A stretch of DNA of 64,000 nt from Caldilineaceae bacterium. GTDB taxonomy: Bacteria > Chloroflexota > Anaerolineae > Caldilineales > Caldilineaceae. Shown piece after piece: positions 8,069-62,651 of this stretch. The notes under the pieces are model-generated. The model did no database searches. It was given only the letters and a program-made list of their open reading frames with translations, and was not told where the DNA came from. The stretch's first letter is position 1. Every line of letters begins with the position of its first letter. The stretch lies in the NCBI GenBank assembly GCA_034428435.1, contig DAOUHY010000265.1, positions 16,408-80,407 of the forward strand, given 5' to 3'. The translations under genes were made by a program, and so were the position numbers.

Positions 8069-8196
8069 GTTGCGCTCCTCGCATTCGCTTCCAGTTCAAT
8101 TGTCGACTTTTCGCCAGAATTGAAGGGCGAACAGCCATCTCATTGGACCTGCATCGGATAGAGGTCGGGGGGATTGGGGACAGATCGCTTTTTGGG

Positions 8197-8632
8197 GGTG
8201 CATCGCTGATTTGGAGTGGGAACAGTCAGGCGGGGAATCGGTGCCAGCGGTGGCGGGGGAATCGTTTACAGGCTTTTGGAGAAACGCAGGGCAGGCACGA
8301 GGGTGAGGAGAGAGTGGAGAGGAGCGAGGAGAGAGTGCCGCAGTGTAGTCTGCGGGGGACTGGCGGGACGTGGTTTGGCTGGACACTTTCGATTTGGCAC
8401 TCGTTACGAATAGCGACACCAGGTCGGCGAGGCATGTTGTAGGAGAGGGGGCGTTGCGGGGGCGGAGCCCCCGCACAAGGGAGGGCCGACTAGGCCCGAC
8501 CGCCCAGAAATGCAGTGGTCAGTAGTCAGTGGTCAGAGACGGCGCTCTGGCTGCCTCAGATTTGATCGCGGAGCGGCCATGGTTAGGTCTCTGCCAGAGG
8601 ATTGCGTTAGCTCACCCCCATTTTGGGATGCA
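8197..8632 (+). mobile_element. MITE-like non-autonomous element, copy A
   Basis: Imperfect terminal inverted repeats: 5' GGTGCATCGCTGATTTGG and 3' CCCCATTTTGGGATGCA. It is flanked by the identical 11-mer CGCTTTTTGGG at 8186-8196 and 8633-8643. It shares a 73-nt core (8434-8506) and most of its other sequence with copies at 36616-37079 and 61042-61499. No credible ORF. Confidence 0.7.
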
Positions 8633-8650
8633 CGCTTTTTGGGCAACCGT

Positions 8651-57709: not shown

Positions 57710-58087
57710 CTATAACGTCGCCTGACGTCGAATCAGATTGGCGAACAGATACCCGGCAAGGAGACCGGCAAATGCCAGCACGAACAGCCACAGATCGTTA
57801 GGTACTCCGGCCGTCGAGCCGATGCCTGCAAACAGGACCGCCCCGGCAAGGGAGATGATGAGTCGAAACGATTGCGCTTTTTTGTGATGGCGGGCCTTCT
57901 CCAACAGCTGTGCTGCGTCGCCGTAATCCGGCTTATGTCTAACGATCTCTTTAAGTGCATAGACGGCACCCGTATAGTTGCCGTCCTCCATCTTTTCCTG
58001 TGCGAGCTGATAGAGAAAGCTGCACTGTTCTTCAAGTGTTCCCGTCAGCTGCTTCTTGGCCACCTGGTTCCGGTTGTCTCCGCACAC
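57710..58087 (-). CDS. Hypothetical membrane protein inserted between nuoK and nuoL (helical TPR-like head + two TM helices)
   Basis: NYTGAVYALKEIVRHKPDYGDAAQLLEKA followed by LIISLAGAVLFAGIG and LWLFVLAFAGLLAGYLFANLI. The start is uncertain: GTG at 58087, an internal GTG, or ATG. Confidence 0.5.
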   Translation of the reverse strand: MCGDNRNQVAKKQLTGTLEEQCSFLYQLAQEKMEDGNYTGAVYALKEIVRHKPDYGDAAQLLEKARHHKKAQSFRLIISLAGAVLFAGIGSTAGVPNDLWLFVLAFAGLLAGYLFANLIRRQATL

Positions 58088-60475: not shown

Positions 60476-60832
60476 CTACTGCCACTCCAGGGCGCCCTTG
60501 CGCCAGTCGTACATGAGTCCAATCACGAGCAGGAGAACAAAGAAGATTGTCGCGAACACTGCAAACATTTCCAATTGCTGGTATGCAACCGCAATTGGAA
60601 AAAGGAACAGGGCTTCAACATCGAACACGACGAAGACCAACCCAATCAGGTAGTACTGAGCTCGGAATTGCACCCAAGTCTCGCCAATGGTTTCGACGCC
60701 GCTCTCGTATATATCGTTCTTGATCTCATCGGGCCGGCGGGGACCAAGGAAGTTGCCCAGCACAATGGCGGCGAGAGGCAAAACGACCGCCAAGCCGGAC
60801 ATAACCAGTATGAAGAAATATTGACTGAGCAT
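60476..60832 (-). CDS. nuoA: NADH-quinone oxidoreductase subunit A (copy 1)
   Basis: 118 aa from MLSQYFFILV. YESGVETIG, FDVEALFLFP and C-terminal YDWRKGALEW. The track ORF over-extends to 60922. Confidence 0.9.
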   Translation of the reverse strand: MLSQYFFILVMSGLAVVLPLAAIVLGNFLGPRRPDEIKNDIYESGVETIGETWVQFRAQYYLIGLVFVVFDVEALFLFPIAVAYQQLEMFAVFATIFFVLLLVIGLMYDWRKGALEWQ

Positions 60833-61041
60833 TGCCGAAAATCCGTTTGTGTGGAATTTAACAAACTCCCGCGAAAGTATAGCATAGCGATTTCTGATAG
60901 CGAAAGTTCGTACCCTTCGCAAACGCGTTCAAAGTGGAGGCGATGACTACATATTCGAGGGATTCGATAGGATAGGGGCGGGGCTGCTGAAAAGATCCTT
61001 CGATGCGACCCGTCAGCATGCTTGTTGAAGTCAATCGATAC

Positions 61042-61499
61042 GGGTGCATCCCAGATTTGGGGTGGGAACAGTCTGGCAGGGAATCAGTGCCAGCGGTGGC
61101 CGGGGTTGTTTGCCGTCTTTGGGCGAGGCGCAGTGCAGGCGCCAGCCCTGGCCGTACGATGGCGTCCGTCAGTTGGGGCGGGTGCGAGGGCAGGCACCTA
61201 CGGGGAATTGATAGGGACGGCGGAACGTGGTCTGGCGAAGCCCGGTCGAACAGGCACTTATCGCCAATGTCGACACCCGGTCGATAAGGCATGTTGTAGG
61301 AGAGGGGGCGTTGCGGGGGCGGAGCCCCCGCACAAGGGAGGGCCGAATAGGCCCGACCGCCCAGAACTGCAGCAGTTAGTAGTCAGTAGTTAGTGGTCAG
61401 AGACGGCGCTCATTCTGGCGGAAACTGGAATGGGAACTGACCATGGGTTGGGTGCCTCCAGAGATATACGAAAGTTCGCCCCAATATTGGGATGCAGAC
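61042..61499 (+). mobile_element. MITE-like non-autonomous element, copy C
   Basis: Same family. The 5' end is GGGTGCATCCCAGATTTGGGG and the 3' end is CCCCAATATTGGGATGCA(GAC). It is flanked by ATCGATAC at 61034-61041 and 61500-61507. The core at 61291-61363 differs from A and B at one loop position. Confidence 0.65.
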
Positions 61500-61516
61500 A
61501 TCGATACCGACGGGCT

Positions 61517-61546
61517 TTGACAGGAGATTTTGGTTCGTGCTAGAAT
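61517..61546 (+). promoter_or_regulatory. Predicted sigma70-like promoter (TTGACA-18-TAGAAT)
   Basis: Hexamers at 61517-61522 and 61541-61546. The -35 box starts after a 17-nt gap from the MITE copy C end, about 70 nt upstream of the plus-strand nuoA. Confidence 0.45.
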
Positions 61547-61617
61547 GAATGCGTTCGTGGAAAATTGCACGAACAGTTCCCCGAGCCTTTCAGTTACGCT
61601 GAAAAGGAATAACAGGG

Positions 61618-61974
61618 ATGGCAAGCGACTATCTGCCACTTCTCATACTGATCCTGCTGGCGGCCGGATTCGGCGTAATTGCCATAGGTCTGCCTTCACT
61701 GTTAGGTCCACGAGAGCGCAACAGTCAGAAGTTGGAGCCATACGAATCGGGGATCATCCCCTTTGCCGACGCCCGTCGACGATTCCCGGTGAAATACTAT
61801 CTGGTTGCCATGCTCTTTCTGATCTTCGACATCGAAGTAATCTTCCTCTACCCGTGGGCGGCCGTCTTGAGAGACCTTCGCCTGTTTGCCCTATTGGCGA
61901 TGATTCCCTTTTTCATTGTACTCGTGGTAGGTTTCCTCTATGAATGGAAGAAGGGCGCTCTCGATTGGGACTAG
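61618..61974 (+). CDS. nuoA: NADH-quinone oxidoreductase subunit A (copy 2)
   Basis: YESGIIPF, FDIEVIFLYPW and YEWKKGALDW. It is only distantly similar to copy 1. Confidence 0.92.
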   Translation: MASDYLPLLILILLAAGFGVIAIGLPSLLGPRERNSQKLEPYESGIIPFADARRRFPVKYYLVAMLFLIFDIEVIFLYPWAAVLRDLRLFALLAMIPFFIVLVVGFLYEWKKGALDWD

Positions 61975-62123: not shown

Positions 62124-62651
62124 ATGGGTTTAGAAGAAAAGGTTCCTGAAGGCATTCTAACGACGTCAGTGGACAGCGTGATAAATTGGGGAAGGGCCAA
62201 TAGCACGTGGCCGCTGCTCTTCGGGCTGGCCTGTTGCGCGATGGAAATGATCGCCACAGGCACGGCGCGCCACGACATTGCCCGGTACGGGTCGTAGCTC
62301 TTCCGGGCCAGCCCGCGGCAAGCCGATCTCATGATTGTCTCGGGTCGCGTCAGCAACAAGATGGCGCCGGTGATTAAACGCATTTACGATCAGATGCTGG
62401 CCCCCAAGTGGGTAATTGCCATGGGAATCTGCGCCAGTGCGGGCGGGCCGTTCAACAACTATGCAATCATCCAGGGCGTGGACAAGATAATTCCCGTCGA
62501 CGTATATGTGCCAGGCTGCCCGCCCCGGCCCGAGTCACTGCTCTACGCAATGGATCTGCTGCGTGCGAAACAGCGGCGCGAATCGGTTGGGGAATGGCGC
62601 AAGGTCGAGGAGCCGTTAGCAGTTGACGAGATTATGCCGTTGGGTGTTTGA
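62124..62651 (+). pseudogene. nuoB: NADH-quinone oxidoreductase subunit B interrupted by an in-frame TAG (62295-62297)
   Basis: The ATG at 62124 (AAGGA RBS) gives [57 protein letters not shown][22 protein letters not shown]...VPGCPPRPE. The stop replaces the Glu of the conserved FG(S/A)E motif. The track only shows the distal ORF 62331-62651. Confidence 0.8.

Follow-up and report, generated by a model that had tools for sequence, protein, structure and literature searches.

A probable ISKra4-type MITE at a complex I promoter in a Caldilineaceae bacterium

The divergent complex I genes and the element between them

Two genes for NuoA face away from each other in the window, the 64,000-nucleotide stretch of a Caldilineaceae MAG analyzed here: nuoA1 at 60476–60832 on the minus strand and nuoA2 at 61618–61974 on the plus strand (both Pfam PF00507, E 2.6e-33 and 2.3e-37, respectively). 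The two proteins have 118 aa each and are only ~39% identical to each other. The minus-strand cluster runs nuoA1-H-J-K, a 125-aa ORF, and L-M-N, and thus encodes membrane-arm subunits alone; the genes downstream of nuoA1 match PF00146, PF00499, PF00420, and PF00361 (three times), and the ORF between nuoK and nuoL (57710–58087, minus strand) has no Pfam match. The nuoA2 operon is complete in a closed relative (G019), with the order nuoA-B-CD-EF-G-H-I-J-K-L-M-N and with nuoC/D and nuoE/F fused. An earlier note on this DNA spoke of two complex I operons, a description that is broadly correct, the nuoA2 operon being complete and the nuoA1 cluster only partial. In the window, nuoB of the complete operon carries an in-frame TAG at 62295–62297 (…ARYGS*LFRAS…), and the closed relative G019 has an uninterrupted orthologue of 175 aa that matches PF01058. 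The TAG may reflect a misassembly, a variant of this strain, or a pseudogene.

The nuoA2 gene is preceded by a promoter at 61517–61546 on the plus strand (TTGACA, an 18-nt spacer, and TAGAAT, with TG before the −10), which fits the consensus at 11 of 12 positions and is the sole strong match in a consensus scan of 60700–61750. It is invariant in 24 species of the same genus, with the ATG at 99–101 nt in all of them except G009 (104 nt). The likely nuoA1 promoter, read by eye at 60876–60904 on the minus strand (−35 TTCGCT, a 17-nt spacer, and an extended −10 TGCTATACT), scores below the threshold of the scan and lies ~137 nt outside the element described below. This predicted promoter is enclosed in a block next to nuoA1 (60833–60910) that is near-invariant in the 24 species. 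A direct repeat, GCGAAAGT at 60871–60878 and 60900–60907, 29 nt apart, brackets it and is conserved across the genus. In the nuoA2 leader, the inverted repeat GTTCGTG-N8-CACGAAC (61552–61575, plus strand), conserved in all same-genus species, is possibly an operator or an RNA hairpin. The motif TTCGTGC, invariant in the 24 species, overlaps the spacer and −10 of the nuoA2 promoter; this motif and the leader repeat, which together span 61533–61575, could be an operator.

Between the two genes lies a 458-bp non-coding element, copy C (61042–61499), which, as read from the window sequence, begins with GGGTGCATCCC and ends with GGGATGCAGAC, its right end pointing toward the nuoA2 promoter. The earlier note had given these borders and the flanking repeat correctly, and had rightly located the element between the ATG of nuoA1 (60832, minus strand) and that of nuoA2 (61618, plus strand). 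Its position is not central: 209 nt separate it from the former ATG and 118 nt from the latter. The left terminal inverted repeat (TIR), GGGTGCATCCCAGATTTGGGG at 61042–61062, shows a conservation of 0.93–0.96 among family copies, and its first 17 nt are the left end of an ISKra4-type IS found in the MAG and in relatives. The right TIR, CGCCCCAATATTGGGATGCAGAC at 61479–61499, corresponds to the terminus that follows a transposase C-terminus at four contig ends of the MAG. In copy C, the left terminus GGGTGCATCCCAGATTTGGGG can pair with the right terminus CCCCAATATTGGGATGCAGAC at 16 of 21 positions; the family ends are well conserved, and the right end reads TGCAGAC in copy C for the family consensus TGCACCC. 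The element is flanked by ATCGATAC on the left (61034–61041) and by an exact partner on the right (ATCGATAC, 61500–61507), and these two copies, identical at 8 of 8 positions, form its target duplication (TSD).

Copy C is non-coding. The ORFs that overlap it extend beyond its borders, and indels of 11 and 14 nt, which break the reading frame, distinguish the orthologous copies of three species (G000, the MAG itself, G007, and G019). Copy C is a MITE: it is short, non-coding, and multi-copy, it has TIRs and a TSD, and its site is empty in relatives. A REP/BIME-type palindrome was considered and rejected. REP/BIME sequences are imperfect palindromes of ~35–40 nt without TIR or TSD, typically located at the 3' ends of genes; copy C is 458 bp long, has TIRs and a TSD, and belongs to elements found upstream of promoters.

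Empty and filled sites in related species

The intergenic region differs in length among close relatives by the size of the insertion. Among database genomes, the nearest relatives are Caldilineaceae MAGs, for some of which the isolate names point to a sponge origin, and the divergent nuoA1/nuoA2 pair is present in all 24 same-genus species sampled. The site is empty in six species (G021, G022, G010, G008, G023, and G017), where the intergenic region measures 315–318 bp, compared to 785 bp in the window. In relatives without the element, the region is thus ~468 bp shorter instead of having the same spacing, so the insertion is real and does separate the two nuo control regions, as the earlier note had it. 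The four empty sites aligned in detail (G021, G010, G022, and G008) have just one 8-mer (ATCGGCAC or ATTGACAC); it lies 8 nt upstream of TTTGACA, as far from the −35 box as its counterpart in filled sites. The filled regions of G000, G007, and G019 are 781–794 bp long, with the 8-mer on both sides of an element of ~460 bp. The contigs of G002 and G018 break within the element, and their right junction is identical.

It is extremely improbable that these 458 bp are a native regulatory sequence or a gene for a structured RNA. Such a reading would account for its stable and conserved internal structure and for the one small RNA contig that spans 61293–61372, but this contig could stem from any of hundreds of cores in any related genome. 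An Rfam scan of 60800–61700 in E-value mode returned chance-level matches alone (E 2–6), with no family that fits. Six species with empty sites, the single target copy in the four aligned in detail, the TSD, the TIRs, and ~290 dispersed copies all argue for a mobile element instead.

Other insertions were also found at the nuoA2 promoter within the genus. In G001, a member of a different subfamily is present with its TSD, ATTCGACA, shifted by 1 nt, and G004 and G005/G015 have other right ends, at 14–16 nt from the −35 box. Overall, 10 of 24 species have an element end 14–18 nt from the nuoA2 −35 box. These ends form no fewer than four different junctions, so insertion at this promoter took place at least four times independently within the genus. 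Conservation is poor in the spacer that separates the two promoter blocks, including in the species with an empty site. Sequences of other kinds occupy the region in three more species. In G003, an insertion of 4.8 kb that contains several ORFs separates nuoA1 from nuoA2 (L065, C1:4261700–4267400); a relationship to the MITE or the IS was rejected for it, as it lacks element ends and resembles neither the MITE nor the IS fragment. G024 and G012 (L057 and L054) contain a different element of ~430–510 bp with a diverged double-hairpin core, which lies in the spacer ~32 nt upstream of the −35 box and is without ISKra4-type ends.

The element family, its promoter target, and its likely parent

Copy C belongs to a large family in this genome. 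A BLAST search of the MAG (4.7 Mb in 477 contigs) gave 289 matches to copy C, among which 41 are full length with 72–88% identity to it; shorter variants and many stand-alone central cores of ~70 nt also occur among the matches. Two further copies, A (8186–8643) and B, lie inside the window. Identity to the family consensus is 88% for copy C, 86% for copy B, and 73% for copy A. The junctions of 38 full-length copies were aligned, and their usual layout is an 8-bp TSD, GGGTGCA at the left end, TGCACCC at the right end, and the 8-bp TSD again. The two TSD copies agree at 8 of 8 positions in 19 of the 38 and at 7 of 8 in nine, and the offsets allow a length of 8–9 bp.

Copy C has exactly this usual family layout with a perfect TSD. 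The earlier note regarded its flanking repeat as shorter and degenerate, with 8 of about 11 positions retained; 8 bp is the normal length for the family, and the repeat of copy C is intact. The reference length of ~11 bp rests on chance matches in copies A and B, so the TSD of copy C is normal rather than degenerate. The 11-bp repeat of copy A consists of the 8-bp TSD and a chance match between the last 3 nt of the element (CGC) and the nucleotides preceding the left TSD, and the 10-bp repeat of copy B likewise includes a chance match to its last 2 nt (GC). A TSD of 10–11 bp was rejected for the family, since these extra matches occur in A and B alone and are absent from other copies.

The family is found at promoters throughout the genome. 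With element ends defined by BLAST, a sigma-70-like promoter starts 14–17 nt past one end in 23 of the 38 full-length copies, beyond the right end in 11 and beyond the left end in 13, one copy having promoters on both sides. Elsewhere in the 57-nt flanks of these 38 copies no promoter passes the threshold, and 15 of the copies have none that does so at all. A larger set of ends (67 right and 104 left) gave the same sharp peak at 14–17 nt. The distance from the end of copy C to TTGACA is 17 nt, at the upper edge of this genome-wide range. Copy C lies where it does because its family inserts at a fixed short distance upstream of −35 boxes, and it stands between two gene clusters only because the targeted nuoA2 promoter belongs to a divergent gene pair.

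The ends of the MITE are those of an ISKra4-type IS. The transposase model NCBIfam NF033572 has four short matches in the MAG (model positions 396–422, E 1e-5), all at contig ends, which correspond to the last 26–27 residues of an ISKra4 transposase. Each of them is followed by TTCGCCCCAATATTGGGATGCACCC, 25 nt identical to the right terminus of the MITE, and in two cases TTGTCG-N16-TATAAT or TTGACT-N17-TATAAT begins 15 nt past this terminus. The left end of the IS, GGGTGCATCCCAGATTTTTTGAGAGG, was found at three other contig ends. The contigs that end in the IS are C437, C19, C300, and C149 on the right side and C111, C121, and C257 on the left side. The genome therefore holds several near-identical IS copies that are missing from the assembly, and they are probably active. 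Because the transposase C-terminus and the left ends stand at contig ends, the autonomous IS is taken to be present in the genome and collapsed in the assembly, in which contig-end fragments alone were found and the complete parent IS is absent. Facing element ends 0.7–6 kb apart in the MAG were also examined as candidates for a complete IS, and all 11 of 11 pairs enclose ordinary genes and no transposase. Full-length transposases score above the curated NCBIfam cut-off (205 bits) in 8 of the 24 same-genus genomes, with up to 14 copies. Six IS copies inspected in relatives start with GGGTGCATCCCAGATTT or a one-base variant of it, and the IS measured in G019 is 1458 bp long with an 8-bp TSD.

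These properties place the family close to a described group of promoter-targeting transposons. The ISKra4 group corresponds to p-MULT 4 of the prokaryotic Mutator-like DDE transposases, with Chloroflexota among its listed hosts; its elements have inverted repeats of 18–39 bp with a terminal C and direct repeats of 8–9 bp, insert 13–17 bp upstream of sigma-A promoters, and do so in both orientations when their inverted repeats are near-perfect (Guérillot et al. 2014, PMC3942029). Our family has termini in common with the IS, an 8-bp TSD with 9 bp allowed, a right end of TGCACCC, and a corresponding promoter distance; both orientations and a Chloroflexota host are further points of agreement. 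The outer 17–25 nt of the MITE are those of the ISKra4-type IS of the same genome. In contrast to this IS, copy C is without a transposase and has only 458 bp compared to ~1.46 kb, and its interior is unrelated, consisting of a conserved 59-nt double hairpin and variable low-complexity modules.

Other known systems resemble copy C in part. Promoter-targeting ICEs and ISs of a different transposase clade also insert just upstream of sigma-A promoters and thereby spare genes; unlike copy C, they are much larger, autonomous, and usually inserted in one fixed orientation. Correia/NEMIS, RUP, ERIC, and Nezha elements are likewise short, non-coding, and multi-copy, with TIRs and a target duplication and with a transposase supplied in trans, although they derive from other IS families and have different target duplications (TA for Correia). 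A fixed distance to a −35 box is not known for classical bacterial MITEs. Some classical MITEs supply promoters, IHF sites, or RNase III sites, whereas no such feature is shown for copy C. In the literature on ISKra4-derived MITEs and on Caldilineaceae transposons, no description of such a MITE was found.

We consider it highly probable that copy C is an ISKra4-type MITE at the usual promoter target of its family. It would be a non-autonomous element moved in trans by the DDE transposase of the ISKra4 group (p-MULT 4) of the same genome. Like its parent family, it integrates at a fixed short distance upstream of a sigma-A −35 box and generates a duplication of 8–9 bp. Its target here was the promoter of nuoA2-N, the complete complex I operon, a promoter that faces away from nuoA1. 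The insertion added 466 bp between the control regions and left the core promoters and leaders untouched, and its effect would be near neutral.

Age of the insertion, regulation of complex I, and the conserved core

The insertion of copy C appears to be old, because it is common to the five closest species. In these genomes, the arms of copy C differ by 9–23% between G000, G007, and G019, and the unconstrained left flank differs by 7–15%, which fits one old common insertion. The two TSD copies carry separate mutations in G007 and in G019. The earlier note inferred that copy C is older than A or B, an argument that used the wrong TSD length and that the distribution of the copies contradicts. 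Copies A, B, and C occupy the same sites in G007, G019, G002, and G018; additionally, A is found in G022 and G010 and B in G010, species in which the C site is empty. There is no support for C as the oldest of the three copies, and if anything the reverse applies. As a caveat, the order of the species by flank identity changes from locus to locus, so that the species tree is blurred by recombination.

The copies in G000, G007, G019, G002, and G018 might instead be independent insertions or recombinational replacements at a hot spot with the same junction, which we regard as unlikely. The independent hits at the nuoA2 promoter in G001 (with the TSD shifted by 1 nt), G004, and G005/G015 are in keeping with such a hot spot, as are an identical junction in G018 with a right arm from a different subfamily and, at the copy A site, arms that diverge far more than their flanks. 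However, the divergence of the copy C arms is near that of the left flank, a 14-nt deletion inside the element is common to G019 and G002, and in G007 and G019 each of the two TSD copies has decayed on its own, which one old event would lead us to expect. A single old insertion is thus the reading we prefer for the C site.

Resident copies also seem to have changed after insertion. In G018 (L036, C603:1–282), the junction and TSD are the same as in the window and the flanks are 99% identical to it; the right arm of the element is of a different subfamily, which points to reinsertion or to recombination with another MITE copy. At the copy A site (8186–8643; orthologues L073, L075, and L083), the arms differ by 18–40% between species and the flanks by 2–13%. 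Elements at fixed sites therefore seem to turn over or swap modules faster than their surroundings.

The proposal that the insertion rewired the regulation of the two nuo clusters is unsupported by these sequences, because both core promoters lie outside the element and are predicted within blocks that are conserved with or without the insertion in the 24 species. The distance between the two −35 boxes rises from ~144 nt in the empty site to ~612 nt in the filled one, and from about position −52 outward the original sequence upstream of nuoA2 has given way to that of the insertion. An effect may arise through UP-element or activator sequences beyond −52. Since both core promoters and leaders are untouched, the effect of copy C on nuo expression is probably small. 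We infer that the insertion is tolerated and near neutral in its regulatory effect, because the core promoters are intact, the displaced spacer is unconserved, relatives carry the empty allele, and the same promoter was hit repeatedly.

Transcript data from a relative are compatible with the predicted nuoA2 promoter. Contigs from four metatranscriptome runs are ~93% identical to the window and so come from a relative; the runs hold only 5–7% of words, and the assemblies are unstranded with possible DNA carry-over. In three runs, a nuoA2-nuoB RNA contig of this relative ends (unstranded) at 61568–61574, 22–28 nt downstream of the −10, and in none of the four runs do the RNA contigs of this ~93% identical relative extend into the insertion site. 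These positions are contig ends and not transcription starts, and they agree weakly with the predicted promoter.

The interior of copy C contains a GC-rich double-hairpin core of 59 nt (61304–61362, plus strand) that is near-invariant, with 0–1 differences in 59 positions among G000, G007, and G019, whose arms drift as described above. It is predicted to fold into two hairpins within an outer stem (−41.9 kcal/mol, z −4.25). Conservation of the core among paralogues is 0.98–0.99, and it is likewise unchanged between species at the A and B sites. The hairpins of the core lack a T-run downstream and thus do not constitute a canonical terminator.

We judge it quite improbable that the insertion was kept for a changed nuo regulation, whether through uncoupled promoters, a lost activator or UP element, or an insulating hairpin. 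The wider separation of the −35 boxes, the persistence of the insertion across at least five species, the constancy of the 59-nt core at the C site while the arms drift, and its very stable folding on both strands would all suit such a role. Nevertheless, the poorly conserved spacer of empty-site species holds no obvious conserved upstream site, close relatives function with the empty site, and dozens of unrelated promoters have family members at this position upstream of their −35 box. Conservation of the core is just as high in A, in B, and across the genome, so it is not specific to nuo, and the missing T-run speaks against termination. A tolerated, near-neutral insertion remains the favored explanation for the C site.

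The constancy of the core at fixed sites is the one feature that neutral decay leaves unexplained. The core must be maintained either by selection or by gene conversion from the hundreds of other cores. Selection at resident copies, for example for a protein-binding site or for a transcriptional insulator that would shield the promoter from incoming transcription, is conceivable, though we hold it to be rather unlikely. If it were true, hundreds of promoters in these symbionts, including that of complex I, would carry a functional module delivered by a MITE.

As a single insertion, copy C matters little: it would be an ordinary landing of a promoter-targeting transposon, with no sign of a changed regulation of complex I. 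The family as a whole is more informative. With hundreds of copies, it provides a map of likely sigma-A promoters in uncultured Caldilineaceae, some of whose MAGs derive from sponges, and the promoter of the complete nuo operon is among those marked. Additionally, the filled alleles of the nuoA2 promoter (10 of 24 species, from at least four events) and the empty ones constitute a natural experiment on the effect of such insertions on expression.
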